DNA of 64,000 nucleotides. Source: a virus. Lineage: Duplodnaviria; Heunggongvirae; Uroviricota; Caudoviricetes. Position numbers and translations under genes: made by a program. The DNA lies in IMG/VR virus record IMGVR_UViG_3300021387_001477; one strand, given 5' to 3'. Below are positions 3,135-55,455 of this stretch, in pieces. Position 1 is the first letter of the stretch. Each line of letters starts with the position of its first letter. The notes beneath the pieces are model-generated. The model was not told the DNA's origin, searched no databases, and saw only the letters and a program-made list of their open reading frames with translations.

Positions 3135-4799
3135 ATCCGTTGCTATAATCACTTTGCCAAATCTTGAATATCGTTTAATTTTTTCATATGCCTCTTCAGG
3201 ACTACTACACCCAGTGGTTACGTTGTTTACGTCAATTCCAAGTCCGATGACTCTGAATATAGTAAACAATTCTCTATTATCCATCATAGAATCAGCTGTA
3301 TCAGAAACTACATTCTTGACACGGCCTCTTAAAGGAATGACAGCCGTATACTTCGTACTCTTTCGTGCAGCCTTTAGAGAACCACCAGGAGATAGACCTT
3401 CAACTATAAATGCCTCACAGTCCCATCTTTCTCCAGGTCCGGCAGTTGCATCACTAAGTCCCTCAATCATCTCGGTCTTAGCTTTGTATACTCCACGACC
3501 AGCCGCTTCATCCATAATCCTCTGAGCTTTATCTGCAGCTCCTAAATTTTTCATAGAGTCCGCTAGATAGTTAAGTCTATCTACATGTGCATCCCAATAA
3601 TCTGGATTCTTCTTAAATATCTTCTGGAATTCTTTTACAATTGGATCAAAGTCTGACTGTTTAACTTTGGCGAAATTCTTTAGCTTCTCTTTTGTTTGGC
3701 TATTGAATACTGTTTCTGCCGCTAAAGCTACAACACACATCTTTAGTCCATTGGTTACGTACCTGTGTTTAATTCCATAGGTTTCACGAAGAGCCCTAAT
3801 GAAACAGTCCTCTACATAATTGATATGAACACCAGAGTCTACTACGAGCGAATTTACAGATCCACAATATTCCTTCGGGCTTAACTCTTCATCGACTCCA
3901 AAAGATACAAACAAGTCAATATATTCATTCATGCTAGTATCTTCTGGAATGATTCTCTTCATAAATTCAAACCCATAGCCAACAAACCCAGACCCCAAGA
4001 GCTCCTTTCCCTCAACTTCAATTCTTGCCTTTCTCTTATAAAATTTTTCTAAGATAAGTAAGAAATATTGAAGATTTTGAATAGGAACTGCCATCTTTTT
4101 GATAACAGCTGGTTCATAGATTTCGGGATCTGGTTTAAAAAGAATTATGGTTGACATACCACTAGGAAGCTGTTTTTCAAACTTTTTACCAAATGCTGCT
4201 TTTTCAAGATCAGCTTTCTTCATGGCTCCCTCATAGTATTTATATCCTTTCTTATACCAAACTATATAAAACAGATCTTTCTTACTCCTAGGTCCTGCAT
4301 TATTCCAGAGGTCATATACTGCTTTTGTAGATTTATCCCAGTTAAGAGGAGTAATTCTAGACATTAGTATATAATCTTCAGAAACTGCATTAACAGCACT
4401 AGAGCCAACACCATTCATTCCAACGGTTGCTACTTTACTGTCTGAAAATTTGGAACCAGAGTGAAGGGTACTTATAGATAGGTCCGCTTGAATAATTGGA
4501 GCTCCATCTTCCCCAATCTCTGATGAAGGGTATATTGGAATACCGCGCCCATCATCTGCAACCATAGCATAACCGTTCATATATCTATCAATGATTATAT
4601 TTTGGGCAGAATGATAGCACTCATCAACAGAGTTATCAATTATTTCTCTCAAAAGTGTATCACAGCTGTCAGTTCCCGAAAGATACATTCCGATACGCTG
4701 ACGTATAGCCTGTGGAAACTTTAAGAGTTTAATCTCATCTGGATTTTCTAAATTATTAAATTCATCATTCATATTATTATAAATTAAATTAATATTCAA
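3135..4799 (-). CDS. topoisomerase II large subunit exon 1: GHKL ATPase + TOPRIM (GyrB/T4 gp39-like)
   Basis: MNGVGSSAVNAVS (GyrB GLHGVG region), EGLSPGGS (TOPRIM EGDSAGGS), ends ...IIATD at splice site; in-frame stop 2 codons into intron. Confidence 0.85.
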
Positions 4800-4879
4800 A
4801 AATCTGAGAGAACACTTTTAATATTCCCTCAGATATAAGAAAATAACCTTCTTGGAAGAGCAAAAAAAAAGAATAGGGA

Positions 4880-5473
4880 TTATACTCCCCATTCTTCTGA
4901 TAATTCATATAAATCTACGACACTATCCCAACTCCCTCCGATTAGGCTTGGAGAGTGTGTTGCTATAATAACTTGGCCTGGATATTTACCTTCTGCCAAT
5001 ATCTTTTGAATGATATTTTGTACTCCTATATGTACATGAGTTTCTGGAAGATCAAAAAGCAATACTCCAGGAAAACAAGATAGATAATGAAGTACAAGAA
5101 GGGCATTATATTCACCAGGAGATGGAGGAAATCCCGTCTTCTTCTCAAGTGCTCCATTCTTTTCTATCCACTTATGCTCTAGGTAATCGTCATCAAAAGC
5201 CTCAGGAAATTTATTTAAAATATCTGAGGAAATTGGAACATTTTTATATGGATCTAAGAAATCACAGTAAAAGAATTTCTCTGGCTTATTATTTTTCCAT
5301 GTAAGCTCTAATTCCATTCCCTCGTCTGGACCATATGCTAAGGACCGAAGTAGGTGAGTTTTTCCATATCCATTCGGCCCAGTTACGAATGTCACTTTTC
5401 CTGGGAGCTTTATGTTTAGCTCTTTATCACCATAAATTAATGATTTCTTTATCTTTATCTTTTCTAGTTTCAT
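4880..5473 (-). CDS. small P-loop ATPase (ABC/RecF-like, AAA_21-type)
   Basis: Walker A GPNGYGKTHLL, Walker B LLFDLPE, ATHSP. Confidence 0.55.
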   Translation of the reverse strand: MKLEKIKIKKSLIYGDKELNIKLPGKVTFVTGPNGYGKTHLLRSLAYGPDEGMELELTWKNNKPEKFFYCDFLDPYKNVPISSDILNKFPEAFDDDYLEHKWIEKNGALEKKTGFPPSPGEYNALLVLHYLSCFPGVLLFDLPETHVHIGVQNIIQKILAEGKYPGQVIIATHSPSLIGGSWDSVVDLYELSEEWGV

Positions 5474-6863: not shown

Positions 6864-7249
6864 ACTATTTTGGTTTTAGTGTGTGTTAAACAAAAAACGT
6901 AAGAGTCTTAACCAAATTTTTCTCTCTAGGTATTCTCTTACAATAATAAGGGTTTGGGGGATTATGAGCGGTAAAAAATCTAGCACCATATAAATAATAA
7001 AAAATAGAAAAGATCGTAGTTGTCTTCTCTATTTCTTTCTTCGTAAAAAATAACCACCGCCTATACTTTTGGCAGTGGTTTAAGTTTCTACTCCTTATGG
7101 TACACTCACTTTTTCTTACGTATAAGATATTCCAGCATGTTAACTGGGATAAGCTGCTTGGCCAATAATACAGCTTTCTTATTATAAGGTGGTTCCATCT
7201 CTCAGGAAGTAGAGTTAGTTTTGTTAAATTTTCGAAAGATTTTTTATTA

Positions 7250-7260
7250 CATATATAAGG
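7250..7260 (-). promoter_or_regulatory. conserved promoter core (minus orientation) for 6886-7240 small gene(s)
   Basis: ACATATATAAGGG + GACGGAATAAAAAAA + hairpin. Confidence 0.45.
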
Positions 7261-7298
7261 GTTTAAAGGAATTATAGACGGAATAAAAAAAGAGGACA

Positions 7299-7850
7299 TC
7301 AATCCTCTTTCCTCTCAATTTTAAGACCCCAAGGAGATTCTTTACTTGGAACTAACAGAGACGTCTTCTTTTCAGAAAATTTAAGTCCCTTACTTGCAAG
7401 CTGATTCTTAAGGAATTCGAAGGTCTTCTTTCCAATTAAATAATAACCGCAGTTAGACCAGTTATCAACGAACATTTTATATTGTTCCTCTGTTAAGCTT
7501 AATAGGTCAGATACAGTACGAATCCCAGTATCCCCTCCTCTAAGAAAGTTTAACAATCTCGCTCTGGTATTCTTATCTCCTCTAGTTACTAGAGGCAAGT
7601 TGAGAAGAAAAACATCAACTCCCCTAGTCTTCCAATACTCTTGTTCTGCTTCAGATATATTTTCCGGATTCAAGATATCATTAAACTTATCACTTTGTTT
7701 CACTCTCTCCTCTATCTCAGATATCATTACAAGTTTGGTTTGTAGTTTTCTTAAGAACTCTTCGTCCAGCTTTTTTCTCTTATCCAAGAACCTATCTTCT
7801 AGCTCTTGTCTCTTTTTTAAATAGTCTTCTAAAATCTCTTTTTCGTTCAT
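7299..7850 (-). CDS. hypothetical coiled-coil protein
   Basis: 183-aa ORF with promoter CTATATATAAGG at 7872-7882. Confidence 0.5.
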   Translation of the reverse strand: MNEKEILEDYLKKRQELEDRFLDKRKKLDEEFLRKLQTKLVMISEIEERVKQSDKFNDILNPENISEAEQEYWKTRGVDVFLLNLPLVTRGDKNTRARLLNFLRGGDTGIRTVSDLLSLTEEQYKMFVDNWSNCGYYLIGKKTFEFLKNQLASKGLKFSEKKTSLLVPSKESPWGLKIERKED

Positions 7851-10385: not shown

Positions 10386-11894
10386 ATGGTTTGTAATGAA
10401 CTAAAAGACAAATTACCTGAAGGATGGAGAGAAAAATTTGTACATAGAGACTGTGACCAAGCTAACTATGAATTCGCTATGTTTGAGATTGATGGGAAGA
10501 ATAAGATACTAGTCCGAAACCCAGATACCGACGACATAATGGAATACTACTATGATGATTTTGATGAATGGATTGAGATAGATAAAAAAGTTATGAGATC
10601 TCTAATAAATAAAGACACAGAGTCCAAAGTTTATATTAGTCCTGATGGAAAGTATATAAAACATATTGGAAGAAAGAAAAGAGAACTATCTTCAAAATTA
10701 GTAGATAGGTGCCCGTACCCAATAATATCCATATGTAGTTGTCAAGTAAAAACCCACAGACTTATAGCTTTTATATTTATTCCAAACCCATATCCAGAAA
10801 AATATAATATAGTTAATCATAAAGATCTAAGCAGAACAAACTTTAGCAAAGAGAACTTAGAATGGTGTGATGCTAAATGGAATGCAAAAAGAGAGAATCA
10901 AAAGAAATATATTCCTGGAACAGTTTATGAAAGACTATCAGATGGGAGAAGATTTTCTTCTGCTGATTTGGCCGAAGAGTATAAGAATAAGCAATCAAGC
11001 TCGGCAGTTTTGGGAGCAATTAGCCGCGGAAAAACTTATCATGGGAGTACATGGAGAGTAATAGACCTTTCATTAGAAGATTATTTATCACGACACCCGC
11101 TGACAGATAGTTGGATCCAACACCCTACACTAAAAGATGTTTATGTAAATAGCTGTGGAGTACTTAGGATAAAAGATAAAATAGTTGTTGGAAATAAACA
11201 CGAGTGTTTATATTATTCAATAAGTATTGAAGGGAAACTATATAAGACCCACAGAATAATAATGGAAGCCATTCTTAATAGAGAGCTCCTAAACACAGAG
11301 GTAGTTGATCATATTATTCCTGTTTCTAAAGATGACATAAACAATGAAATATCTAATCTTAGAGTAGGAACGCAAAAAGATAACCTAAATAATGAACATA
11401 CACGTATTAAGTGGATTAAGAAGGGATCGCTTAAAAAATTTTCATTATTTGGTGACTTTGTAGAAGAATATAAAACTATAGATGATGCGCTTAAGGCGAA
11501 TAGTGAGATAAAAAGTAAAGTCTTGCTTATTAGGGCAACTGAGCTAGGCGCTGGAGCACTTATTTCTGCTGGAAACTTTCTCTGGTGTTTTGAAGGAGAG
11601 GAGGATAGAGTAAAAGATAGACTAGATTTTATATACTACAAAACGCCAGTAAACTCCTTAACAATAAAACCAGAATCCGCCTCAATAAATCTCAAAGATC
11701 TATCCAAAGAAATCCCAATTAATAAACTCAACAAAGTACTGAACACAGGATTTCCCTTAAATGGATACGTTTACCAGCGGGGAAAACCTAATGATATCCT
11801 CATTGATAAATCTAATACAGCATTGGAGAAGAAACGAGATAATATATCATGGAGAGAGTTTACAGGAAGAAATAAAAATAGAGAAGACAACTAA
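10386..11894 (+). CDS. free-standing HNH homing-type endonuclease (paralog of 1818..2981)
   Basis: Shared N-terminal region (YYYDDFDEW vs YFYDDINQEW) and HNH blocks (THRLIAFIF...N; THRIIMEAIL...DHIIP...N). Confidence 0.65.
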   Translation: MVCNELKDKLPEGWREKFVHRDCDQANYEFAMFEIDGKNKILVRNPDTDDIMEYYYDDFDEWIEIDKKVMRSLINKDTESKVYISPDGKYIKHIGRKKRELSSKLVDRCPYPIISICSCQVKTHRLIAFIFIPNPYPEKYNIVNHKDLSRTNFSKENLEWCDAKWNAKRENQKKYIPGTVYERLSDGRRFSSADLAEEYKNKQSSSAVLGAISRGKTYHGSTWRVIDLSLEDYLSRHPLTDSWIQHPTLKDVYVNSCGVLRIKDKIVVGNKHECLYYSISIEGKLYKTHRIIMEAILNRELLNTEVVDHIIPVSKDDINNEISNLRVGTQKDNLNNEHTRIKWIKKGSLKKFSLFGDFVEEYKTIDDALKANSEIKSKVLLIRATELGAGALISAGNFLWCFEGEEDRVKDRLDFIYYKTPVNSLTIKPESASINLKDLSKEIPINKLNKVLNTGFPLNGYVYQRGKPNDILIDKSNTALEKKRDNISWREFTGRNKNREDN

Positions 11895-11912: not shown

Positions 11913-12323
11913 TTATCTAATTCTTCTAAACCTAACTACGTACTTGCTTTCATCTCTCCTAACTTGGGCCCCTTTTTCTCGAATGAATCTAAGAATTGGA
12001 TGGGTAATCCAGTTAGGAACTAAATCCTCTCGTTTAGTATCACACTCTACTTTAAGATCTTTGCAATTCATAATCTTATCATACATTCTTGTCATTGCAT
12101 ATGCACTCCCCTCAAATTCGATTGTATTTTCATCAATCATTTTCATAGGCATAGCACATTCATATGCATCCCCAGCTAATAGATCAAATAATAACTTAAT
12201 CTTTGGCCCATAACTCGCACAATATGACGTGTAATACTGATCATAGAACTTTCTAATCTCAAATATCTTAGAAGTTGGTACATAGTTTGTATTTGAATCC
12301 GTTATTACTTTATGTTTCCACAA
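11913..12323 (-). CDS. DNA polymerase A, terminal exon (motif C region and C-terminus)
   Basis: CASYGPKIKLLFDLLAGDAYECAMPMKMIDE ~ T7 gp5 LQSAGALICKLW...AYMAWVHDE; ECDTKREDLVPNWITHP ~ T7 DTEGKMGPNWAICH; preceded by intron S-element and G. Confidence 0.65.
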   Translation of the reverse strand: MWKHKVITDSNTNYVPTSKIFEIRKFYDQYYTSYCASYGPKIKLLFDLLAGDAYECAMPMKMIDENTIEFEGSAYAMTRMYDKIMNCKDLKVECDTKREDLVPNWITHPILRFIREKGAQVRRDESKYVVRFRRIR

Positions 12324-12640
12324 AGACTAGACTATATCATTATCCATATTTCAGGATAGATCGCGCTTCGAGAGCAGGACTTTCACCTGATCTCTACTTC
12401 CTTTCAGAATAGTCGTTACACCTTCCATTTCTGGCTTGGCTCGGGATTAGCATGCATTTCTGTTTAGCTTTCCCCGATAGCAAGATTTCTCTCACACCCT
12501 ATATTTCTAGGTTCACGATCTTTTGCACTCTAGAATTACCCCTAGAGGCCACAATTTTACTTATGGACTACAATAATTGGTTGGAGTGGTTGTTTCCAGC
12601 CCTCTTGTATTGATTCACGTATATTATTAAAGAATCCTGA
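12324..12640 (-). mobile_element. group I intron in polA (canonical core); 5' boundary approximate
   Basis: CGGGGAAAGCTAAACAGAAATGCATGCTAATCCCGAGCCAAGCC ... GTGTAACGACTATTCTGAAAGG ... AATGATATAGTCTAGTC ... G| then exon. Confidence 0.55.
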
Positions 12641-12669
12641 GGCCATGATTGAGGCAGTGCCACCTTGTC

Positions 12670-12700
12670 GTTATTACTTTATGTTTCCACAAAGACTAGA
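12670..12700 (-). repeat. duplicate of the 31-nt intron-3'-tail/exon-start sequence CTAGTCTTTGTGGAAACATAAAGTAATAACG (other copy 12298-12328)
   Basis: Exact-looking repeat directly after a second intron S-element but not followed by coding sequence. Confidence 0.5.
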
Positions 12701-12925
12701 TCATATCATTATCCACATTCATGGATAGGCTGCGCTTCGGAATACAGAATTTCACTGTAAACCTACTCCTTTCGGATGATCGTTACACTTTCTCTATCTC
12801 TAGAGCTTAGCACGGGATTGGCATATTATTACTAACTTAGCTTTCCCCGTTAGCAAGATCTCTCACACCTAAGATTTCTTAGTTCACAGCCTGTTTCATA
12901 TAGGATTACTCCTATAAGCTACAAT
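12700..12925 (-). mobile_element. group I intron in polA (canonical core); boundaries approximate
   Basis: CGGGGAAAGCTAAGTTAGTAATAATATGCCAATCCCGTGCTAAGC ... GTGTAACGATCATCCGAAAGG ... AATGATATGATCTAGTC. Confidence 0.5.
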
Positions 12926-13209
12926 TTTATTTATAGGAAGATTCACGCCTAATCTTTCACACCTCGCCTTTAGATTATTCTTCTCTCTGGAATTTGCTTT
13001 TAGCCACAGATCATATTCTTTAATTTTTAATTTATCGCCCATTATTGAATTAATATATCCATCATGGCTAAATGGATACTGTTGTTGAGAGGCCACATAC
13101 TCTCTCAATTTAGGGAAACTTGTATAAAGTCCCTGTATAATATCATCAGCTTCCTCTTCTGAGCAAAATAGTCTTTCAGCCAATGATTTCTTTCCTAGAC
13201 CATAAAGAA
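12896..13209 (-). CDS. DNA polymerase A internal exon (palm: end of motif B to QG region); true 3' splice end near 12926
   Basis: SLAERLFCSEEEADDIIQGLYTSFPKLREYV ~ Klenow [31 protein letters not shown]; ...ARCERLGVNLPIN ~ AAERAAINAPMQG; naive join to micro-exon is out of frame by one nt (see findings). Confidence 0.6.
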
Positions 13210-13464
13210 CCGTTTTGTTATCCTAGAAGTTTTTTTATCTCCTAGCTCTAGTAATTCATTTCTTACTAGTCCAGCATATATTTTCAACTCATATTTTCGA
13301 GTTGGTGGGCTCTCTTGGAAGGATTATATTTATTCACCTTCTATGCGTTACACTAGATTAAAGCCTCTCGCAATCTTTAACCTTAGCACGGGGTTTGGAT
13401 TCTCACCATTCACCGTTTTAGTCCACTTATCATCTATAATATCACTACTATAGACGGCATTTCT
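13210..13464 (-). mobile_element. family-B small group I intron (copy 2), 255 nt
   Basis: GTCTATAGTAGTGATATTATAGATGATAA...ACGGTGAATGGTGAG...GTAACGCATAGAAGGTGAATAAATATAATCCTTCC...GGATAACAAAACG; >80% identical to copies at 13485, 14242, 26113, 29352, 55218. Confidence 0.65.
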
Positions 13465-13484
13465 ACCTAAGAAGACAGTTTTGA
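13465..13484 (-). CDS. polA micro-exon (~20 nt, TCAAAACTGTCTTCTTAGGT) encoding core of polymerase motif B (KTVFLG ~ T7 AKTFIYG)
   Basis: Sits between two tandem family-B introns; with upstream exon gives RKRSF|KTVFLG; exact splice points uncertain. Confidence 0.45.
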
Positions 13485-13739
13485 CGTCTGTTATCCTATA
13501 GGCTTTTTATCCTATAGCTCTATTAGTTCATTTCCTAATAGTCCAGCATATATTTTCATCATTTCTTTTATGATGTCGAGCTCTCGTGGAAGGATTATAT
13601 TCTATTTATAGTTTCACCTTCTATGCGTTACGCTGCTATAGACTCTTTATTTCTATAGTTAGCACGGTATTAGGAATCTCACCCTTCACCGTTTTAGCTC
13701 GATTATCATCTATAGTATCACTACTATAGACGGCCCAAA
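13485..13739 (-). mobile_element. family-B small group I intron (copy 1), 255 nt
   Basis: Same conserved 5' GTCTATAGT..TATAG module, core and 3' GGATAACAGACG. Confidence 0.65.
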
Positions 13740-13740
13740 A

Positions 13741-13830
13741 TGACCTTTTTCTCCACATCTTCTTGTCTTTCTTGTCTAGTTTATCAAATTTATCGCCTAG
13801 ATAGAGCTTGGCGGTATATATATAACAATG
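13741..13830 (-). CDS. polA exon fragment (...TAKLYLGDKFDKLDKKDKKMWRKRS); 5' boundary unknown
   Basis: Open frame upstream of intron B1 ending in R-x-x-x-(F)K that completes motif B with the micro-exon. Confidence 0.35.
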
Positions 13831-13849
13831 TGTTCAGAGAGTGTCGTTA

Positions 13850-14143
13850 CTTCTCTCTGGTTCTCTTATGAACTCCTGTATATTTCTATACAGATCAGAC
13901 TATATCTTCACCTCAATACCGAGGGCTTACCGTTTCCACTACACGAACTTTGTAGTGTACTCTCTTTCGAGATAGTCGTTGGGGTTTTGATACAGAGCTA
14001 GTTAGTCATACTAGCCTTAATTTTATAAATATTTATCAAAACCTGCTGATTGGCCTTATTCTTTGATTTCTTACGGAAGTGACTAAATCTTCTCGTACCA
14101 AAGACTTAACGGGCGTTTCCAGCATTTAGTAAGTTTATTTTTC
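13850..14143 (-). mobile_element. group I intron (family C-like) in polA; boundaries approximate
   Basis: CAACGACTATCTCGAAAGAGAGTACAC ... GAAGATATAGTCTGATCTGTATAGAAATATACAGGAGTTCATAAGAGAACC tail (tail duplicated at 14530-14570). Confidence 0.45.
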
Positions 14144-14144
14144 T

Positions 14145-14241
14145 TGGGATCACTCCCAAGCGATACTTAAATCTAATATCTTCGCCTTTATTAAACTTAT
14201 CAATCAAGTCGGGATCTCCGCTTGCGAAACCTGCAGCTTTT
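14145..14241 (-). CDS. polA exon fragment between motifs A and B (KAAGFASGDPDLIDKFNKGEDIRFKYRLGV...)
   Basis: Follows G of intron B3; resembles Klenow LLTAFAEGKDIH region; ends at 20-nt hairpin repeat CTTGGGAGTGATCCCAAG. Confidence 0.4.
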
Positions 14242-14498
14242 CAGTTATGTTATCCTAAGAGCTTTTTATCTCTTAGTTCTATAGATTCTTATTTATATTC
14301 TCTATAGCTCGGCGTACATTTTTAACTATCGCTAGTTATCGGACACTCTTGGAGATACTATATTTATTCAATCTCTACGCTCTACATTACTAGAGTGCCT
14401 TTCGAAATCACTCTAGTTAACTCGGTATTTAGATTCACACTATTTACCGATTTTGCCCGATTATACTCTATAGTGTTTCCACTATAGACGGCATTTCT
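14242..14498 (-). mobile_element. family-B small group I intron (copy 3)
   Basis: GTCTATAGTGGAAACACTATAGAGTATAATCG...CGGTAAATAGTGTGAATC...GTAGAGCGTAGAGATTGAATAAATATAGTATCTCC...GGATAACATAACTG. Confidence 0.6.
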
Positions 14499-14509
14499 AC
14501 CTCTGCACT

Positions 14510-14741
<232 letters not shown>

Positions 14742-17423
14742 TTAGTTTTTCTTGGGATCACTCCCAAGTGACACCAATAATTTATTTTCAATGTCAAAAT
14801 AAGTTTCAATAAAGTCTTCATCTACTATATTCCCATTCTCGTCAATATGATATGGCGTTCGAACACAATCTTTAAAATCTGCATGACTAACCAAGACATG
14901 GAACGCACTAGACCACCTCTTTGAACTCTTTGTGTTGACCTCATAATGACAAAAGCATTTATGTACTGCTCCTGGCTCATTAGGGTCAGCTTCACGAATA
15001 GGAATATGTTTTTCGTCCTCAATTACCCACTTTCCCTCTTTCAGCATTCCATCAATATAGGTCGATAGAACCTTTGAATATTTTTTGAAGAGCAGATAAT
15101 TGATGACCATTTTTCTCATAAAATAGAATCTGTTATCAAAGTCAGATTCATTGAAGATCTTTCCATAATCTTCATATTGATCAGAAACATACTTAAAGAA
15201 CTGTTCCTGAGCGATATATCCATTAAAGTTACTCCACACCTCTTTTACCTGATCACATCCTAAGTCATTATAGAATTGATCAAACAGGACATATACTTTT
15301 TCTGGATAACTGGTTTGCCCTACTGGAGTTCCTTGATAAAGTTTTGTATAGTTCTCTCCAAAATGAGCAAATCCATCTTCAACTGTTTTTATACCGAGTT
15401 GTTCATAATATTTTTCTGCGCCTGGAAGTTGCTGCGCACTTTCAAACATTGCAGCGAGATATGCAGACTCGGTAGGATACAGTTGAGCAAATTCCAAACA
15501 GATCTCATCATTTTCAATGGGGGACTTACACTTAAAGAAGTTATCCGATACATAATCTGAATAACTAATTAAATCCCATTTTTGTCCAAATGCATAGATC
15601 TCTTGAGGAATGTTTTGTATGTCATTAAGTTGATTCTTTGAGACTTTCATTAACTCATTGAACGCTCTTTCATAATATAGATACTTCTCAAGCTCTATGT
15701 GTTTGTCATTTATCTTTATTTTATCTAGTCCGATTATAGGAATTAGTTTATCTCCCAAGACCTGTTGGATCTTCTTCTTTCCGCCAATTCCTGAATCAAT
15801 CTTAGACTTCAATACTTTCTGACCTGTTTTCTTATAGAGTTTTATCATTCCTACCTCTTCCATTGCTTCTCTTAGGACTTTCATAAAATTGGTAGCAAAG
15901 TCTGGACCATACTTCATTAATAATTGGCCCTCGTTTATACCAAGTTCATAAGCATCCATAGTATCAACATTAGAAGTCAGAAGATACTTAGCTATTTCAG
16001 CCGGATTTCCATTAAAGAAGGTATTATCATGCAGCAGTTTCTTGGCAATATCAGAATAATTATCTATATTTGCCATCTTTTTCTTGTGCTTATCCATCTT
16101 TATTTTACACCTAGCTTCACTACAAAACGTAATGCTCCACGCAATCATCTCTTTCGACTTCTTTTCATACTCCAATCTAAATGGCTCGTCAATATATAGG
16201 CCACAATTATGAAGTCTGGCGCCCAATCTTGCATTATCCATAAAGGTTCTAATACAATCTTCAGAGAATTTATCTTTCTCTACCAGATGTATCATAAGAG
16301 TATAGAAAGCGTCAAGATTACAATAATACCCTAATATTTCTGATGGAACACACATAAATGAACTCTTGTCCCAGTATTCAAGTATTAAAGCTTCAAATTC
16401 ATTTATATAACTTGGGTATCTTGCGCATATCTCAGCCCATTCCGGAGTTGTTTTAAAATCAGAGGGAGTAATTTTTAGAACTTTCTTCTTATCTTTCTTA
16501 AGTTTCCCTACTTCTTCATAAAACATGCTTTCAACAAGATCTGAGATTCTGTCAAACTCGGTATCCCAGACAGTAGCCTGAAGTATCATTTGGGCTGACC
16601 ACTTTAAGGAATATTTCTTTAAGTGATTTCCCTCAATGACATTATAAACAGACGCATCTATAAGATTATATAGGTCTACTCCAAACATTCTATGAGATAC
16701 GGCCTGTTCATATTGCATATTATAAGTTACAAGATGACTCTGCCTATGATTCAAAAAATCTCCAAATCTTTTACATATCATTCCGTATTGTTCAGGACTA
16801 CATGTATGTCTAAGATCTGTAAAACTTATAAATCCTCCGAAGTTTTTTGTACACAGTGATGCCCCAGATATATCAAACCATACATCCAAAGCCATACCAG
16901 ATGCCTCGAAGTCAAAGCCTAGGTCCTCAGTCTCTGGAAGATTACAAAGCCAGTCTAAAAATTTCATTGCTCCAGTAAAATCATGAATAACTTTACTTTG
17001 GAACCAGGAAAAATCAACGGGCTGTGTAAATCCTGGAGACATAAAATCTCTAATTATGTCTGGAGAAGGAGGATCTAGAACTACCTTAACAAAAGCTCCG
17101 CCCTCTATACTTAACCTTCGAAGTTTGGACACATCGAAGTAATTCTCTGACCTAACCCCAAAGTGATAGAACTGGTTTAGATATCGATAAGGTTCTGCCC
17201 CCACCAACATAACAGCATCACTTGGGCCTAATGTCAGAAACTCTCTTTTTGCATCATCGGACATAGATTCAATATTCTCAACCGTAAAGATCTGAGATGA
17301 ATCCAGCCCTATTCCATAATAATCCACCACGTAATTTGGTGTTTCTTTAGCTGAAATTAATACAAATCGTTTGTTCATAAATCTAAATATTAATATACCT
17401 TTGAGCCGATATCTTACATACAC
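14742..17423 (-). CDS. DNA polymerase A exon 1 (N-terminal region incl. 3'-5' exonuclease-like domain, no polymerase motifs A/B/C)
   Basis: 893-aa ORF; GFDFEASGMALDVWFD exo-like block; last codons overlap the 20-nt hairpin repeat so true 5' splice site may lie slightly upstream of the stop. Confidence 0.65.
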   Translation of the reverse strand: MYVRYRLKGILIFRFMNKRFVLISAKETPNYVVDYYGIGLDSSQIFTVENIESMSDDAKREFLTLGPSDAVMLVGAEPYRYLNQFYHFGVRSENYFDVSKLRRLSIEGGAFVKVVLDPPSPDIIRDFMSPGFTQPVDFSWFQSKVIHDFTGAMKFLDWLCNLPETEDLGFDFEASGMALDVWFDISGASLCTKNFGGFISFTDLRHTCSPEQYGMICKRFGDFLNHRQSHLVTYNMQYEQAVSHRMFGVDLYNLIDASVYNVIEGNHLKKYSLKWSAQMILQATVWDTEFDRISDLVESMFYEEVGKLKKDKKKVLKITPSDFKTTPEWAEICARYPSYINEFEALILEYWDKSSFMCVPSEILGYYCNLDAFYTLMIHLVEKDKFSEDCIRTFMDNARLGARLHNCGLYIDEPFRLEYEKKSKEMIAWSITFCSEARCKIKMDKHKKKMANIDNYSDIAKKLLHDNTFFNGNPAEIAKYLLTSNVDTMDAYELGINEGQLLMKYGPDFATNFMKVLREAMEEVGMIKLYKKTGQKVLKSKIDSGIGGKKKIQQVLGDKLIPIIGLDKIKINDKHIELEKYLYYERAFNELMKVSKNQLNDIQNIPQEIYAFGQKWDLISYSDYVSDNFFKCKSPIENDEICLEFAQLYPTESAYLAAMFESAQQLPGAEKYYEQLGIKTVEDGFAHFGENYTKLYQGTPVGQTSYPEKVYVLFDQFYNDLGCDQVKEVWSNFNGYIAQEQFFKYVSDQYEDYGKIFNESDFDNRFYFMRKMVINYLLFKKYSKVLSTYIDGMLKEGKWVIEDEKHIPIREADPNEPGAVHKCFCHYEVNTKSSKRWSSAFHVLVSHADFKDCVRTPYHIDENGNIVDEDFIETYFDIENKLLVSLGSDPKKN

Positions 17424-21927: not shown

Positions 21928-22225
21928 GGTCCATTAATTCAGTGGTTAGAATGGCTGACTCATGATTATTACGATTGTGTGCTTAGGAAGGAAACGCCTA
22001 AGTAGATTCCCCCAAATTCGGTGAAAGCTAAGGAGAAATCTATGCTAATACCGAGCCAAGCAGGTATATATAATAAATACTGGGCGTGTGTAGAGACTAG
22101 ATGGAGGAGGCCTAAGTAGAAATATATGGTCGTGGTATAGTCCAGTTCAGCAAACATGAAATTATGGCACGAAAGTGTAGTTGAAACGAATCAGTAAGTC
22201 GCAGGTTCAAATCCTGCATGGACCA
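21928..22225 (+). tRNA. tRNA-Met/Ile (CAU) interrupted by a 225-nt group I intron (21964..22188) between positions 36 and 37
   Basis: Exon1 GGTCCAT..GCTGA-CUCAU (ends in U); exon2 AA-TCAGT-AAGTC-GCAGGTTCAAATCCTGC-ATGGACC-A; intron ends in G. Confidence 0.7.
21964..22188 (+). mobile_element. group I intron (ORF-less) in tRNA-Met
   Basis: TTCGGTGAAAGCTAAGG...GCTAATACCGAGCCAAG...TGTAGAGACTAGATGGAGG (R element)...GGTATAGTCC (S element). Confidence 0.75.
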
Positions 22226-22296
22226 CAAATAAAAAATCTAATAGTCCGATAGCTAGAGATATCGTCTCTCGGACTATTTTCGAAACAATAACAGAC

Positions 22297-22596
22297 GGCC
22301 CGATAGTTCAGAGGATAGAACGACAGCCTTGAAGCGCTAAAAATGATATTAGCATTAGGAGTGCACTGAGGGAAACTTCAGATGTAGAACTCTTCAAATT
22401 CGGGGAAAGCGTAATAGCCAATCCCGAGCCAAGCCTAGAAAATCGTTCTAGGAAGGTGTAGAGACTAGACGGAGAGGGCCTAAAAGATTATTTGATAATC
22501 TCATGGTCAAGGGATAGTCCGAGATGAGAATTATTATTAATTATTCTCATTGAGCTAAGCTGTAAGTCCTGCGTTCGAATCGCAGTCGGGCCGCCA
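22297..22596 (+). tRNA. tRNA-Arg (UCU, inferred from splice rules) interrupted by a 224-nt group I intron (22331..22554); CCA encoded
   Basis: GGCCCGA-TA-GTTC-AGAGGATA-GAAC-G-ACAGC-CUU|intron|CUAA-GCTGT-AAGTC-CTGCG-TTCGAAT-CGCAG-TCGGGCC-G-CCA; anticodon assignment depends on exact junction. Confidence 0.6.
22331..22554 (+). mobile_element. group I intron (ORF-less) in tRNA-Arg
   Basis: GAGTGCACTGAGGGAAACTTCAGATGTAGAAC...TTCGGGGAAAGCG...CCCGAGCCAAGCC...GGTGTAGAGACTAGACGGAGAGGGCCTAA...GGGATAGTCCGAG. Confidence 0.75.
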
Positions 22597-22737
22597 ATAA
22601 AAACCATTTGGAGTTAACATTCAATAAGATTCGTAAAGAGTGAGAATGTGAATAGCAGAAAACGCTAGCTCCTCAACATAAAATTAACAAATCCAGATAT
22701 AGATCTTCTGCTTATACAGAATTCTAATCTGGACAGA

Positions 22738-22894: not shown

Positions 22895-24136
22895 ATGACA
22901 TTAGACGAGTTTAAAAATCTAAGCGATGAAGAACTAATTGGTCTATTTAAAGATTTTGGGTATAGTGCTAAGAATATAAACAACGCTTTTGGTTTTTCCA
23001 GAAATACAACGGAAAGGCTATTCAACAAAAGAGGAATTGATCGTAATAAACTAATAGAAGGCCACGATAATGAAGCAAAAGAAGAATATGAAAAGAATCC
23101 AAAGATTTGTAAATACTGTGGTAACCCAATGCCTTGGGAAAAGCGAAGAAATATGTATTGTAATAGTTCCTGCGCTGCTTCTGAAAACAATAAAGGAGTG
23201 GTCAGAAATGTGGAAGGAAATATTGTTAATCTTAAGAAAGCAAATCCTAATATAGGAAATGCAAAATATCCTGGGGAGCTAAGCGAAGCAAGAAGAAGAC
23301 AAGTCGAGCACAATAATATTATAAAGAATCATGAAGATTTAGATATTCCTGAAATAGGCTTGGGGTGTTGCTTTATTTGTGGACAAAAAGAGTGTTCTAG
23401 TGAATTTTGTAAAGAACATAACTTTAGCCAGCTTATTGGTTTATCGTATCGTTATGGACTAGATTCAAAATTAATAGGAACTGTTAATATATTTAATGAG
23501 TTTACAAGAATCAGAGAGTTAGTATATGACCTATATTGGAATCAGGGACTCTCAGGACGAGACTTGTCAGAACGATTTGGGGTTCCAGAATCTACTATAA
23601 TATCACAAGATTTTGATGTTTTAGATATTCCAAGACGATCAGCAGAAGAGTCAGTAAGAAACTCGCTACTTCAAGGAAAACGGCTTCCACCTCTAAACTC
23701 AAAGATTGGAATACAGGAATGGCATACTACTTGGACAGGAGAACGCGTATTCCTTAGAAGCTCTTATGAGACAGACTATGCAAATTGGCTTGATGAAAAC
23801 CAAATATCATATTCAGTTGAAGAGCTTAGAATAGAATATTATGATACTCAACAAAATAAAACTAGAATAGCTATACCAGACTTTTACTTATCCAGCACTA
23901 ATGAGATAGTTGAAATCAAATCAGATTTTACACTAGACATACAAGAAATGCTAGATAAGTTTAATGCATATAAAGAGAATGGCTATATTCCAAAATTAGT
24001 TCTTGAAGGAAAAGAGGTAGATATCTATAGAATTGAGGAAGAGATTGATGAAAAAAGAATTAATAAGATAAAAACAAAAAATATTAATTCATTCAGAAAC
24101 AATGGAAACTCAGATATAGATCGAGATAAGACTTAA
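22895..24136 (+). CDS. hypothetical nuclease-like protein: N-terminal HTH-like, Cys4 zinc ribbon, C-terminal putative PD-(D/E)xK motif
   Basis: CKYCGNPMPW...CNSSC; IPDFYL...EIVEIKSD pattern. Confidence 0.4.
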   Translation: MTLDEFKNLSDEELIGLFKDFGYSAKNINNAFGFSRNTTERLFNKRGIDRNKLIEGHDNEAKEEYEKNPKICKYCGNPMPWEKRRNMYCNSSCAASENNKGVVRNVEGNIVNLKKANPNIGNAKYPGELSEARRRQVEHNNIIKNHEDLDIPEIGLGCCFICGQKECSSEFCKEHNFSQLIGLSYRYGLDSKLIGTVNIFNEFTRIRELVYDLYWNQGLSGRDLSERFGVPESTIISQDFDVLDIPRRSAEESVRNSLLQGKRLPPLNSKIGIQEWHTTWTGERVFLRSSYETDYANWLDENQISYSVEELRIEYYDTQQNKTRIAIPDFYLSSTNEIVEIKSDFTLDIQEMLDKFNAYKENGYIPKLVLEGKEVDIYRIEEEIDEKRINKIKTKNINSFRNNGNSDIDRDKT

Positions 24137-25593: not shown

Positions 25594-25665
25594 GATCCAT
25601 TAGTTCAACGATAGAACAACTGTCCCTAAAACAGCACGTTGTCGGTTTGAATCCGACATGGATCA
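25594..25665 (+). tRNA. tRNA with anticodon CUA (amber-suppressor-like; anticodon loop CCCUAAA with C33 and a 27-43 mismatch)
   Basis: GATCCAT-TA-GTTC-AACGATA-GAAC-A-ACTGT-CCCUAAA-ACAGC-ACGTT-GTCGG-TTTGAAT-CCGAC-ATGGATC-A; otherwise canonical 72-nt cloverleaf. Confidence 0.5.
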
Positions 25666-25702
25666 CAAAGGACCTAAAATCCTTATAAAAGAAAATAAAT
25701 AA

Positions 25703-25878: not shown

Positions 25879-25938
25879 GGAAAGTAGTGCTAACGGCGAC
25901 TTTTAATAGGGTATGTAGTTCGATGCCACTGCTTTCCG
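25879..25938 (+). pseudogene. 60-nt truncated tRNA-like element (acceptor GGAAAGT/GCTTTCC paired, too short for a cloverleaf)
   Basis: Acceptor-like pairing and TTCGATG T-loop-like block but missing arm(s); same acceptor design as following tRNA-Ser. Confidence 0.3.
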
Positions 25939-25950
25939 CAAAAACTATAT

Positions 25951-26038
25951 GGAAGGTTATTTCACCCGGCGGTGGACCTAGTCTTGAAAATTAGTGGTAC
26001 GTAAGCATTCGTATGGGGATCGACACCTCAGCCTTCCG
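25951..26038 (+). tRNA. tRNA-Ser (UGA), type II with long variable arm
   Basis: Acceptor GGAAGGT/GCCTTCC, anticodon stem CTAGT/ATTAG loop CUUGAAA, variable stem TACG/CGTA, 88 nt. Confidence 0.5.
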
Positions 26039-26057: not shown

Positions 26058-26390
26058 CGGGATGTAGCGCAGTTGGTAGCGCATGTGGTTTGGGACCACA
26101 GGGTCGCAGGTTTATTTTTACAATGGACGTCTATAGTGGAAACATTATAGAGAATAATTGGGCAAAAACGGTGAAGGCTGAGATTGCTAACGCCGTGCTA
26201 ACTAGATATATTGCGAAAGGATATCTAGCAGCGTAACGCATAGGAAGTGAATAAATATAATCTTCCCACGAGTGTCCAACAGCCACAGTAGATGTGGTTG
26301 AAAACGTATGCTGGACTAATACAAAATGAAGTATTAGAACATAGAGATAAAAAGCTTTATGGTTAACATTCGCGAGTCCTGTCATCCCGA
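26058..26390 (+). tRNA. tRNA-Pro (UGG) interrupted in the T-loop by a 260-nt family-B group I intron (26113..26372)
   Basis: Exon1 CGGGATG-TA-GCGC-AGTTGGTA-GCGC-A-TGTGG-UUUGGGA-CCACA-GGGTC-GCAGG-TT (ends U); exon2 CGAGT-CCTGT-CATCCCG-A restores T-loop TTCGAGT and acceptor; intron ends ...AACATTCG. Confidence 0.7.
26113..26372 (+). mobile_element. family-B small group I intron in tRNA-Pro T-loop
   Basis: GACGTCTATAGTGGAAACATTATAGAG...ACGGTGAAGGCTGAGATTGCTAACGCCGTGCTAACTAG...GCGTAACGCATAGGAAGTGAATAAATATAATCTTCC. Confidence 0.65.
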
Positions 26391-26411
26391 CTAAAAGAAA
26401 ATAGGTAGAAA

Positions 26412-27863: not shown

Positions 27864-28784
27864 ATGTGTTTATATACTGGAAATAAAGAAGGTTTTATAG
27901 CAACCGTAGATATTAAATGCTATAAGAGATTAATTAAAGTTGAGGATAATAACTGGCGAACTCCTTGTCAAAATTGGCCAGTTAAATTGGGGACTACTCT
28001 AATTCCAGATAGCCCTCAGCCCGATATTAGTGAGTTAGGATATAAATGGAAAATAGACGGTGGGGTAATACATTGTTATTCTGGCCTGATTCTAAAAGAA
28101 GATTCTGATCTATTTGAAGCAACAATTCCGGCAGGGACTAGACTTTGGATACAGGACGATCTTAGAGAGTTTGCGGCAGAAAAACTAGTTCTCTCTGATA
28201 AAGTTGCGAAGAATATTGATATAGACATAAAATCTCTCTTCTATCTTGGGGCTGATGTTCTATTAAAGGACGGAAGTAGAAAAAGTGTATTAGATTCCTA
28301 TGACAAAAATGACGTTATCGGAATATATGCATACGACGATCAGGCTATATCAGTAGATGTAAATCTATCTGGAATTAAATTTTCCGAAGATCCTCTCACT
28401 GGATTAGAGAAAAGTAAGAAACTTTGCTATGAGGAAGAAGCTGAGAAGGATAAAGATGGAGAGAAAAATACAGAATACTTAGAGAAGAATTCTTCTAAGG
28501 CTCAATTGAATGCTATAGACTGGTGTAGACAACGAGGAGGATTTTTGCCTTCCGTTGATCAGTTAGTAAGGGCATTTAAGAACTTGATATCAATAAATCT
28601 AACACGAAGATATCTTGGCCTCGAAAAAATTCCATTTTCCTGGTTCTGGTCCTCTACTGTGAAAGATGAGAGTTCAGTGTGGTACGTTGACTCTGGCAAT
28701 TATTACAACTACTGGGGTTGGTACTCGTCTGATATTTGCTGGGATGATCTCTACGTTATTGCGTTTCTCAGTTCTCACAAATAA
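27864..28784 (+). CDS. hypothetical protein with DUF1566-like C-terminal domain
   Basis: GGFLPSVDQLVRAF...FSWFWSSTVKDESSVWYVD pattern. Confidence 0.35.
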   Translation: MCLYTGNKEGFIATVDIKCYKRLIKVEDNNWRTPCQNWPVKLGTTLIPDSPQPDISELGYKWKIDGGVIHCYSGLILKEDSDLFEATIPAGTRLWIQDDLREFAAEKLVLSDKVAKNIDIDIKSLFYLGADVLLKDGSRKSVLDSYDKNDVIGIYAYDDQAISVDVNLSGIKFSEDPLTGLEKSKKLCYEEEAEKDKDGEKNTEYLEKNSSKAQLNAIDWCRQRGGFLPSVDQLVRAFKNLISINLTRRYLGLEKIPFSWFWSSTVKDESSVWYVDSGNYYNYWGWYSSDICWDDLYVIAFLSSHK

Positions 28785-28840
28785 TAAAAGGGTAAATTTA
28801 CCCTTTTATTTTTTTTATCCGTAATTTAGGGAGACCGAAA

Positions 28841-28852: not shown

Positions 28853-28900
28853 AAAATTGTAGACTCGGCTTGGTGGTGGAATGGTAGACACGAGGGACTT

Positions 28901-29319
28901 TAACGTTACTTAAAGGGAAATTATTTCCAACTTATTAAGTATAATTTGAGTGCACTGAAGGAAACTTTAGATGTAGAACCTCCCTAATTCGGTGAAAGCT
29001 AAGCGCAACGCTGCAAAACGCTCCCTGAAATACGGTTAGCGCCTATAGGATAAAGATGCGTATAAATTGCGTATGCTAATACCGAGCCAATGTTTAAAGA
29101 CAGTGTGTAGAGACGAGATACGGGAGGGACCTAAGTTGAAATTTATAAACGTAGTGGGTGGGAATTACCACGTTAAATCCAAAACCTGAGATAAAAGGCA
29201 TTTATAATCTTGCAAGATTTCAATATGGTTAAGATACAGTCCAGACCACAAACAGATTAAGAGCAGAACCAACCTGTATATCAAAGATTTAATCTGGTAG
29301 CGAAAGCTATAGTGGTAAG
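28901..29319 (+). mobile_element. group I intron at the classical tRNA-Leu(UAA) U34/A35 site
   Basis: GAGTGCACTGAAGGAAACTTTAGATGTAGAAC...TTCGGTGAAAGCTAAGC...ACCGAGCCAATG...GTGTAGAGACGAGATACGGGAGGGACCTAA...GATACAGTCC. Confidence 0.65.
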
Positions 29320-29351
29320 AAAATCCCTTGGGCAGAAGTGCCCGTGTGGGT

Positions 29352-29605
29352 TCTCAATCGAGCCGTCTATAGTGGAAACATTATAGATTATAACTGAGCA
29401 AAATCGGTGAAAGCTGAGATGCCAATACCGAGGTAACTATGGGAATATCGAAAGGTCCTATAGCACCGTAGAGCATAGAAGGTGAATAAATATAATCCTT
29501 CCAAGAGTGTTCAGCATCATGGAAGAAGTGATGAAGATATATGCCGAACTATTAGGAAATGAACTAATAGAGCACAGAGATAAAAAACTCTGTGGATAAC
29601 AAATT
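29352..29605 (+). mobile_element. family-B small group I intron in tRNA-Leu T-loop
   Basis: Near-identical to 26113..26372 and 55218..55455 copies; ends GGATAACAAATTG. Confidence 0.6.
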
Positions 29606-29697
29606 GTCGAATCCCATCCGAGCTACAATATAGCCCTGAAATAGTAAAAACGCTATTTTCAGGGTTTCTTTTCCTTATTAATGAAAGGATATCAATT

Positions 29698-54807: not shown

Positions 54808-55217
54808 TGTTAAATATTTACGTAGATAAGAATATAGGGAAAATAGTTCTAAAGACAGATGATTCTTCTGCTAGGTACCTTCTTGAAAAAACAGAGAAGG
54901 AAACTAAATTTATACCAAGGCTTAGGAAGTATGGAACTATAACCAGAACAACTAAGATTTATGATAATACAAGAGTGAGGCCGGATAAGGATGGTGTATG
55001 GACGTTTTATCTTGGTCTTGGTTGGGCTGGATATCTTGCAAGTGTGTTTTTTAAGTTTATGACAAAGGCAGAATATGACCAACTTCTTCTTGATGCCGTC
55101 TATTCTGATAACGTAAGAACAGTACCATTTCCAAATTTGCGAGATTACCAAAATTCCGATGCTCTCCACCTTTTAAAATATAAAATTGGTCTATTCAGTT
55201 GTTATACAAGTTACGGT
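54807..55217 (+). CDS. SF2 DNA helicase exon 1 (Q-motif LRDYQ and first part of Walker A ...GLFSCYTSYG)
   Basis: Exon ends TACGGT (U); tracked ORF terminates 2 codons later at TGA inside intron. Confidence 0.65.
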
Positions 55218-55455
55218 AAATGATTTGCCGCATTATATAATGATACTTCGGGTAAAAACGGTGAAGGGTGAGATTCCTAATACCGTGCTAACTACTGTAA
55301 TTACGAAAGGTATAGTAGTAGTGTAGAGCATAGAGGTTGAATAAATATAATACCTCCAAGAGTATCCGACATAGAGATATGAAAATATATGCCGAACTAA
55401 TACGAAATGAAGTATTAGAACTATAGGATAAAAAGCTTATAGGATAACAAAATTG
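55218..55455 (+). mobile_element. family-B small group I intron splitting the helicase Walker A motif; begins AAATGA (in-frame stop)
   Basis: ACGGTGAAGGGTGAGATTCCTAATACCGTGCTAACTAC...GTGTAGAGCATAGAGGTTGAATAAATATAATACCTCC...GGATAACAAAATTG; join gives TSYG|KTELIA = GxxxxGKT. Confidence 0.65.

Follow-up and report, generated by a model that had tools for sequence, protein, structure and literature searches.

How can a transfer RNA (tRNA) gene that is interrupted twice, once in the anticodon loop and once in the T-loop, still give rise to a tRNA? The question is raised by a locus in IMG/VR record IMGVR_UViG_3300021387_001477, a virus of the Caudoviricetes, of which we analyzed one stretch of 64,000 nucleotides (nt), hereafter the window. 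We confirmed that the locus is a real three-exon gene for tRNA-Leu(UAA) with two inserts, located on the plus strand at 28867-29625. Our analyses further make it highly probable that this jumbo-phage gene is split by two independent self-splicing group I introns, neither of which contains an open reading frame (ORF). The arrangement combines two known kinds of element, the classical tRNA-Leu intron and a family of phage protein-gene introns, the latter residing in a tRNA T-loop. The gene and its flanks are organized as follows:

28783-28810, plus strand: terminator-like hairpin and T-run ending the upstream ORF (27864-28784).
28867-28900, plus strand: exon 1, GGCTTGG TG GTG GAATGGTAGA CAC G AGGGA CTT, comprising the acceptor 5' strand, D-arm, anticodon stem 5' strand, and C32 U33 U34.
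28901-29319, plus strand: insert 1 (predicted intron 1), 419 nt, ORF-less, at U34/A35, terminal G at 29319, IC3-like group I.
29320-29351, plus strand: exon 2 (32 nt), AAAA TCCCT TGGGCAGAAGTGCCCG T GTGGG T, comprising A35-A38, the anticodon stem 3' strand, long variable arm, T-stem 5' strand, and T54.
29352-29606, plus strand: insert 2 (predicted intron 2), 255 nt, ORF-less, at T54/T55, terminal G at 29606 in the conserved terminus GATAACAAATTG.
29607-29625, plus strand: exon 3, TCGAAT CCCAT CCGAGCT A, comprising T55-T60, the T-stem 3' strand, acceptor 3' strand, and discriminator A73.
29632-29675, plus strand: terminator-like hairpin 3' of the gene, followed by UUUCUUUU (minimum free energy, -16.2 kcal/mol; z, -4.67).

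The first-pass annotation, made from the sequence alone, had read this locus as a tRNA-Leu(UAA) gene at 28862-29624, and the check that it proposed, ARAGORN analysis of the concatenated exons, returned tRNA-Leu(taa) with a long variable arm. Its location was correct, but both ends required adjustment: the acceptor stem begins at 28867 (GGCTTGG), and the gene ends with the discriminator A at 29625, with no CCA encoded at the 3' end. The annotation had also expected a normal T-arm and acceptor after intron removal, which we observed both in the ARAGORN fold and in a gap-free alignment to an uninterrupted allele described below. Its two further claims, of a 419-nt classical intron at U34/A35 and of a second, different group I intron at T-loop position 54/55, were upheld by Rfam searches for both, by a bacterial-intron profile and structure counts for the first, and by alignments of relatives and covariation for the second. 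The unspliced sequence at the locus received no ARAGORN call (eight other tRNAs were called across the window), and Rfam at its gathering threshold gave no match at the locus in a search of the whole window.

Features of a class II tRNA are present in the joined exons, including the variable arm TGGGCAGAAGTGCCCG, a 3-base-pair D-stem (GTG/CAC), and A73 at 29625. By sequence reading, a single junction choice for each insert combines U at position -1 with a terminal intron G and 7-nt loops, and joining at these junctions restores the anticodon loop CTTAAAA and the T-loop TTCGAAT. The predicted ligated junctions, with the vertical bar marking the splice site, are GGGACTT|AAAATCCC in the anticodon loop and GTGGGT|TCGAATCC in the T-loop; as strings that a sequencing read would span, they are GAGGGACTT|AAAATCCCTT and CGTGTGGGT|TCGAATCCCA. 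No ORF of 50 codons or more was found in either insert. Terminator-like hairpins flank the gene on both sides, of which the upstream one delimits the tRNA transcription unit on its 5' side and the downstream one received no call in a consensus terminator scan.

To which tRNA genes the exons are related was assessed by scanning viral and metagenome contigs with the exon 2 sequence. Three kinds of relatives were recovered: uninterrupted tRNA-Leu(UAA) alleles (L009, L011, L012, L014, and L016), alleles with an anticodon-loop intron only (L013 and L015), and alleles of Lak-B megaphages. The spliced window tRNA aligned without gaps to the uninterrupted allele L012 of a metagenome contig at 91.8% identity, with most differences being compensated acceptor-stem changes, and was 82-86% identical to the four other intron-less alleles. 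As judged from these alignments, the match to uninterrupted alleles is far beyond chance. The first-pass annotation had described the exons as cyanobacterial or plastid-like, which did not hold: the closest sequences are other phage tRNA-Leu(UAA) alleles, and it is the intron, not the exons, that links this gene to the cyanobacterial type.

The same comparisons bear on whether the double interruption might be a chimera created during metagenomic assembly. The window is metagenome-derived, and the short contigs found elsewhere reach only into the first part of the gene, with three more datasets containing the upstream gene and the start of the split tRNA (exon 1 and, in one record, approximately 100 nt of insert 1). 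A contig of 317,399 nt in ENA, however, holds the same locus and is 99.99% identical to the window, and the same neighboring protein is encoded by another long contig (318,918 nt). Furthermore, the exons flanking each insert are complementary parts of one tRNA, the internal guides of both introns match their flanking exons, and in an independent phage, L230 (IMGVR_UViG_3300011005_000050, a 262,727-nt viral contig), a tRNA gene is interrupted in the T-loop in the same way. An assembly chimera is thus exceedingly unlikely. The identity to the 317,399-nt contig also indicates that the window derives from a jumbo phage. In a megablast search with 20 kb around the locus, we detected no close relative among deposited phages, and tblastn searches gave matches of only ~27% identity for the topoisomerase and none for an 893-amino-acid ORF. 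Two related large contigs (L371 and L372) encode homologues of the upstream protein with no tRNA gene after them, so a comparison of intron-containing and intron-free loci by synteny was not available.

What, then, are the two inserts? For insert 1, the Rfam group I model RF00028 matched 28933-29263 with 41.6 bits (E = 6e-9 in a 1.2-kb search). A 3' signature, GTAGYGAAARCT-N10-G|AAAATCC, retrieved at least 120 bacterial loci, mostly from cyanobacteria; we could verify 108 as tRNA-Leu(taa) genes interrupted by an intron at U34/A35. From 90 of these verified introns we built a profile, which matched window positions 28942-29327 with an E value of 3.2e-18, covering model positions 12-251 of 252. 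The element that would define the 5' splice site is also present:

28948-28951, plus strand: internal guide GAGU of intron 1, pairing with exon ACUU (28897-28900) to form P1, with a U.G wobble at the 5' splice site.

The U34.G wobble column was kept in 11 of 13 aligned sequences. When P1-P9 were proposed on an alignment of 14 phage and bacterial introns, 87.5% of cells were paired, versus 31-47% with slid partners. Compensatory changes occurred in P2, P3, P6, and P9, including all six pairs of P3, and P7 and P8 were paired in 100% of the alignment. In the window copy, all listed helices are intact and all family-invariant nucleotides are kept. These findings support intron 1 as belonging to the classical bacterial tRNA-Leu(UAA) group I intron type; the IC3-like label that we use for it rests on homology to introns called IC3 in the literature. 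With the classical intron of cyanobacteria, plastids, and other bacteria, intron 1 shares the host gene, the U34/A35 site, the rule of U at -1 and terminal G, full-length core homology, the P9 hairpin GUAGCGAAAGCU, and the spacing to the 3' splice site. In contrast to that intron, it is phage-borne, is longer (419 nt versus ~220-310 nt) due to insertions in P1, P5, P8, and P9, and has a second intron beside it in the same gene. Homologues occupy the same site in L013, L015, and Lak-B, and the nearest BLAST relatives were phage and gut-metagenome copies and a contig from a gut Lachnospiraceae metagenome-assembled genome (MAG), not cyanobacteria.

Two other loci with versions of intron 1 were observed. 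In a 35-kb contig binned as Wujia sp. (a gut MAG), a tRNA-Leu(UAA) gene contains a 735-nt version at 7110-7844 (L129), which was the best BLAST match to intron 1 among bacterial-labeled loci; this contig might be phage or prophage DNA. A close homologue also lies on the minus strand of L005 (IMGVR_UViG_3300021399_001898), at ~280-800 of the reversed locus. It is followed by a Leu 3' exon but preceded by a class I-like tRNA 5' half (GGCTCCTTAGCTCAACAGCATAGAGCGTCAGACTT) that is unable to pair with the Leu 3' half, and L005 may be a recombinant or chimeric gene.

For insert 2, RF00028 gave a match of 31.1 bits (E = 8e-6). This model is insensitive here, as it missed both the T-loop intron of L230 and the anticodon intron of Lak-B, and we therefore relied on family alignments, profiles, and pair counts. 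BLAST relatives with 70-78% identity were found in cr118_1, cr6_1, MT835539, and Staphylococcus phages, and further relatives in crAss-like phages, Lak-A/Lak phages, and others. These relatives split protein genes, such as those for helicase and terminase; in cr118_1, removal of the intron restores the Walker A motif of the helicase (GGT|AAA, giving GSGKS). The 3' end reads GATAACAAA(A)TTG in all of them, and from this conserved end the final G of the window intron maps to 29606.

The fold of this family was evaluated on 21 nonredundant members with P2, P3, P4, P5, P6/6a, P7 (pseudoknot), P7.1, P8, P9, and P9.1. We found 92.6% of cells paired, compared to 68% in shuffles and 31-42% when partners were slid. 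Two-sided changes were seen in 50 of 64 pairs, with the P3/P7 pseudoknot included, and none of 500 shuffles reached the observed values. In the window copy, all 64 proposed pairs are standard and the family-invariant nucleotides are all kept. P7 was 100% paired in the 21 sequences, with a compensatory A-U to G-C pair, and forms the pseudoknot with P3. The core and the guide of intron 2 are positioned as follows:

29473-29544, plus strand: core segment of intron 2, with P7 strands GCAUA (29473-29477) and UAUGC (29540-29544) enclosing P7.1, the P3 3' strand, and P8.
29358-29364, plus strand: internal guide UCGAGCC of intron 2, with GAGCC/GGU|UC as P1 (U54.G wobble) and UCGA/UCGA as P10.

The guide makes seven contiguous pairs with the ligated junction GGU|UCGA, a match at a fixed position for which we roughly estimate a chance of ~0.001. 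P10 comprises 4 base pairs and is weak or absent in the L230 and tRNA-Pro copies. Taken together, the alignments, fold, and guide support intron 2 as a group I intron of an abundant phage family that otherwise splits protein genes. Relative to the family members in crAss-like helicase, Staphylococcus terminase, and phage DNA polymerase genes, intron 2 has the same fold, 3' terminus, and rule of ..GGU| opposite ..GCC.., but its target is the loop of a structural RNA, not a codon.

Is the split tRNA-Leu gene an isolated case? The first-pass annotation had considered the arrangement very unusual, and this is so for the literature that we searched; it is not unique, however, as the window contains a second T-loop-split tRNA (Pro) and two anticodon-split tRNAs. 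The tRNA-Pro(UGG) gene at 26058-26391 (plus strand; exons 26058-26112 and 26373-26391) is split between T55 and C56 by an intron at 26113-26372, with P1 formed by GUU|UAUU/AAUGGAC. Its joined exons were called by ARAGORN as a 74-nt tRNA, the unspliced sequence gave no call, and Rfam recorded a partial tRNA and a weak group I match at the locus. IC3-like anticodon-loop introns interrupt a tRNA(CAU) gene (21928-22226, plus strand; intron 21964-22188, after position 36) and a tRNA-Arg(UCU) gene (22297-22597, plus strand; intron 22331-22554, at 34/35). These two introns score just below the Rfam gathering threshold (48.3 and 49.7 bits, respectively), and both genes were missed by ARAGORN. In total, four tRNA genes in the 64-kb window were missed by standard tRNA finders.

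Multiply split genes also occur in other phages. The tRNA-Leu(UAA) gene of L230 (4596-5320) has three interruptions: a D-loop intron (4616-4900), an anticodon-loop insert (4916-5001), and a T-loop intron (5033-5296). The last is at 54/55 and is a member of the intron 2 family (E = 1e-43), and the 86-nt anticodon-loop insert, which falls short of group I intron size, starts with a GGACUU/AAGUCC hairpin. In Lak-B1 (L001, MK250020.1), the tRNA-Leu(UAA) gene at 826-1577 is doubly split, in the D-loop and the anticodon loop, and the same holds for L004, L006, L007, and L010. The D-loop group I intron of L001 (846-1154) lies between U20 and A21, scores 40.5 bits with Rfam, and has P1 as GGU|AAA/UUUGCC.

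Whether intron 2 recognizes its own exons could be assessed from its relatives within the same genome, as the window holds six copies of the family:

29352-29606, plus strand: copy in the tRNA-Leu T-loop.
26113-26372, plus strand: copy of 260 nt in tRNA-Pro(UGG).
14243-14495, minus strand: copy in the DNA polymerase gene.
13480-13737, minus strand: copy in the DNA polymerase gene.
13211-13461, minus strand: copy in the DNA polymerase gene.
~55215-55454, plus strand: copy with 5' exon ..ACGGT| and guide UUUGCCG, just 5' of ORF 55453-56550.

In five of these copies and in L230, a guide of the form ..GCC.. lies opposite exon ..GGU|, whereas in the copy at 26113-26372 the guide is GAC and the exon is GUU|. 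The guide thus changes along with the exon, as would be expected with selection on P1 pairing, i.e., if the introns splice. Among ~147 family matches sampled from viral contigs, three were in tRNAs, two in the window and one in L230. Identity between the T-loop introns of the window and L230 is only 63%, and both have closer relatives among the non-tRNA copies, which disfavors one ancestral insertion behind both; separate invasions appear more likely. Searches for additional T-loop cases yielded mostly spurious candidates. A loose long-distance T-arm screen of family members gave many chance matches, all of which except the window tRNA-Pro failed ARAGORN on joined exons, and a scan with a T-loop 3' exon pattern gave 106 loci, of which only L230 was real. 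No GGT|TCGA target was present in the other ARAGORN-called tRNAs of the window.

The locus might instead be a decaying pseudogene, in which two introns inserted but one or both no longer splice, and functional tRNA-Leu(UAA) is not made. Several observations weigh against the gene being split by two working introns, and some of them are what a pseudogene would be expected to display. Both introns are below the Rfam gathering score of 50 bits (41.6 bits for intron 1 and 31.1 bits for intron 2), and the score of intron 2 against its own family profile is inflated because the window copy was among the seven seeds. P1 of intron 1 has a U-U mismatch beside the wobble and a loop insertion of ~40 nt, and P1 of intron 2 consists of only three exon pairs and two intron pairs. 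The intron 2 part of the locus was verified in long contigs only. The related L230 gene shows that invaded tRNA genes can decay, as its 86-nt anticodon-loop insert could be a degenerated intron and the gene a pseudogene, or the insert could be something else, and L005 has an intron 1 homologue between exon halves that do not match. From sequence we infer splicing, its order, CCA addition, and aminoacylation alike.

Against a pseudogene, the window copies retain all 64 pairs of intron 2 and every listed helix of intron 1, with the family-invariant nucleotides kept in both. The guides match their own exons, including P10, and the guides of the paralogues differ exactly as their exons do. In addition, the exons share 91.8% identity with an intact allele, the changes in stems being compensated, and ARAGORN, which misses split genes, called no other tRNA-Leu(UAA) in the 64-kb window. 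Considering both sides, we regard a decaying pseudogene as unlikely and two splicing introns as the better account of the locus.

A different possibility is that the inserts are removed not by autonomous self-splicing but by another route, such as a protein endonuclease and ligase or with assistance by a maturase. Many group I introns need protein cofactors in vivo, which counts in favor of this route, as do RNA ligase genes in a related phage contig. Archaeal tRNA genes can contain multiple introns of the bulge-helix-bulge type, also outside the anticodon loop, whose removal is carried out by a protein endonuclease together with a ligase; the window introns, in contrast, are of the ribozyme-type group I and belong to a bacterial virus. 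We found no evident bulge-helix-bulge motif, and neither intron has an ORF. The U.G pair at -1 and the terminal G are exactly where group I splicing needs them, the exons are paired in P1 and P10, and the conserved core is complete. Removal by such a route is therefore very unlikely, and self-splicing of two group I introns remains our preferred interpretation.

Other features of the window touch on the mobility and setting of these introns. On the minus strand at ~12100-17423 is a family A DNA polymerase gene, whose exon peptides match PF00476 with 54.3 bits. It contains at least seven group I introns within ~2.6 kb, and one of its exons is ~20 nt (13462-13481). The introns in this gene that Rfam detected are as follows:

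12308-12572, minus strand: group I intron in the DNA polymerase gene.
12677-12942, minus strand: group I intron in the DNA polymerase gene.
13876-14185, minus strand: group I intron in the DNA polymerase gene.
14564-14800, minus strand: group I intron in the DNA polymerase gene.

Genes for free-standing HNH-type endonucleases on the plus strand (10386-11894 and 22895-24136) adjoin the polymerase gene and the tRNA cluster, and these enzymes are candidate helpers for movement of the ORF-less introns. Two tRNA-like stretches without an ARAGORN call lie between tRNA-Ala and tRNA-Pro (25879-26037, plus strand). The stretch at 25951-26037 resembles a class II tRNA and scores 43.2 bits with the Rfam tRNA-Sec model, short of its gathering score (47), and that at 25879-25940 has complementary ends and no obvious cloverleaf. 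A tRNA with a CUA anticodon is located at 25594-25666 on the plus strand (labeled Pyl by ARAGORN; 56.8 bits with the Rfam tRNA model). It is of the amber-suppressor type and suggests TAG recoding in this phage.

How might the gene work? Gene anatomy, homology, covariation-supported cores, and P1/P10 pairing are what we observed, and the splicing chemistry that they imply would proceed as follows. A precursor of ~760 nt would be transcribed from the unit. In intron 1, exon ACUU and guide GAGU would form P1, and the intron would be excised between U34 and A35. In intron 2, P1 would form with G52 G53 U54 and P10 with U55 C56 G57 A58, leading to excision between T54 and T55. For each intron, guanosine would attack after the U.G wobble, and the 5' exon would then attack after the terminal G; the two introns could presumably be spliced in either order. 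The product would be an 85-nt class II tRNA ending in A73, to which a host enzyme would add CCA and which would probably be charged with Leu and decode UUA and UUG. Most likely, both introns are selfish elements whose presence is tolerated since they splice. The T-loop may have been invaded because GGU|UCGA happens to match the guide rule of the intron 2 family, and spread within the genome perhaps occurred by reverse splicing via the GCC/GGU rule or with the nearby HNH endonucleases.

How the locus relates to previously described systems depends on which insert is considered. The closest precedent that we found for the T-loop insertion is the group I introns in the T-psi-C loop of transfer-messenger RNA (tmRNA), which a 2025 tmRNA database paper reported from 883 sequences, at four loop subsites including 2 and 3 (PMC11915505). 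Subsite 2 is equivalent to 54/55, as in the window tRNA-Leu and L230, and subsite 3 to 55/56, as in the window tRNA-Pro. Compared by site and rules, intron 2 has in common with these introns the T-loop of a tRNA-like domain and the U-1/terminal-G rules. Its host, however, is not tmRNA: intron 2 interrupts an elongator tRNA of 85 nt that has an anticodon arm, in a phage and with a further intron in the gene, and it is not a member of that class. Lak megaphages are very large gut phages that, like the window, have tRNA introns, and Lak-B has a homologue of both the window gene and intron 1. The tRNA introns of Lak megaphages were described as "enigmatic" after tRNAscan analysis in eukaryotic mode, with a Lak-B list of one intron, in tRNA-Tyr (Devoto et al. 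2019, PMC6784885). That report does not include group I introns, multiply split tRNAs, T- or D-loop sites, or the Lak-B tRNA-Leu(UAA) introns. In the tRNAscan-SE 2.0 paper, the only group I introns mentioned are those of the anticodon loop, which the program was not designed to detect. In the literature searched, we found tRNA group I introns in the anticodon loop only and T-loop ones in tmRNA only, and no case of two group I introns in a single tRNA or of such an intron in a tRNA T- or D-loop; this absence is no proof of novelty.

Multiply split tRNA genes in jumbo phages form a wider pattern, which is apparently undescribed. We tentatively propose, as an idea that may or may not hold, that tRNAs, and not just tmRNA, are invaded time and again by group I introns at sites other than the anticodon loop, with the ..GCC..-guide family repeatedly colonizing the T-arm GGU and D-loops (G18 G19 U20) being colonized likewise in Lak-B and L230. 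The D-loop intron of Lak-B and L230 apparently differs from the T-loop family yet also has a UUUGCC guide, and the route of colonization is probably reverse splicing. If this proposal is correct, tRNA genes with two or three ribozyme introns would exist in jumbo phages of the gut and rumen. Such genes would be invisible to ARAGORN, tRNAscan, and Rfam thresholds, so that phage tRNA repertoires would be systematically undercounted, and the tRNA supply of these phages may depend on several ribozyme reactions.

Group I introns of bacterial-type tRNAs are the textbook example of ancient introns, and the surveys that we found look in the anticodon loop only. The locus described here indicates that a real tRNA can carry two ribozyme introns and that the T-loop, and in relatives also the D-loop, can serve as an insertion site. 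It provides a naturally occurring system in which two ribozymes would fold and splice around a 32-nt exon, with the structure of the tRNA as a help or a hindrance. Finally, the match of the guide to the universal T-arm GGU-UCGA suggests a route by which introns may pass from protein genes into structural RNAs.

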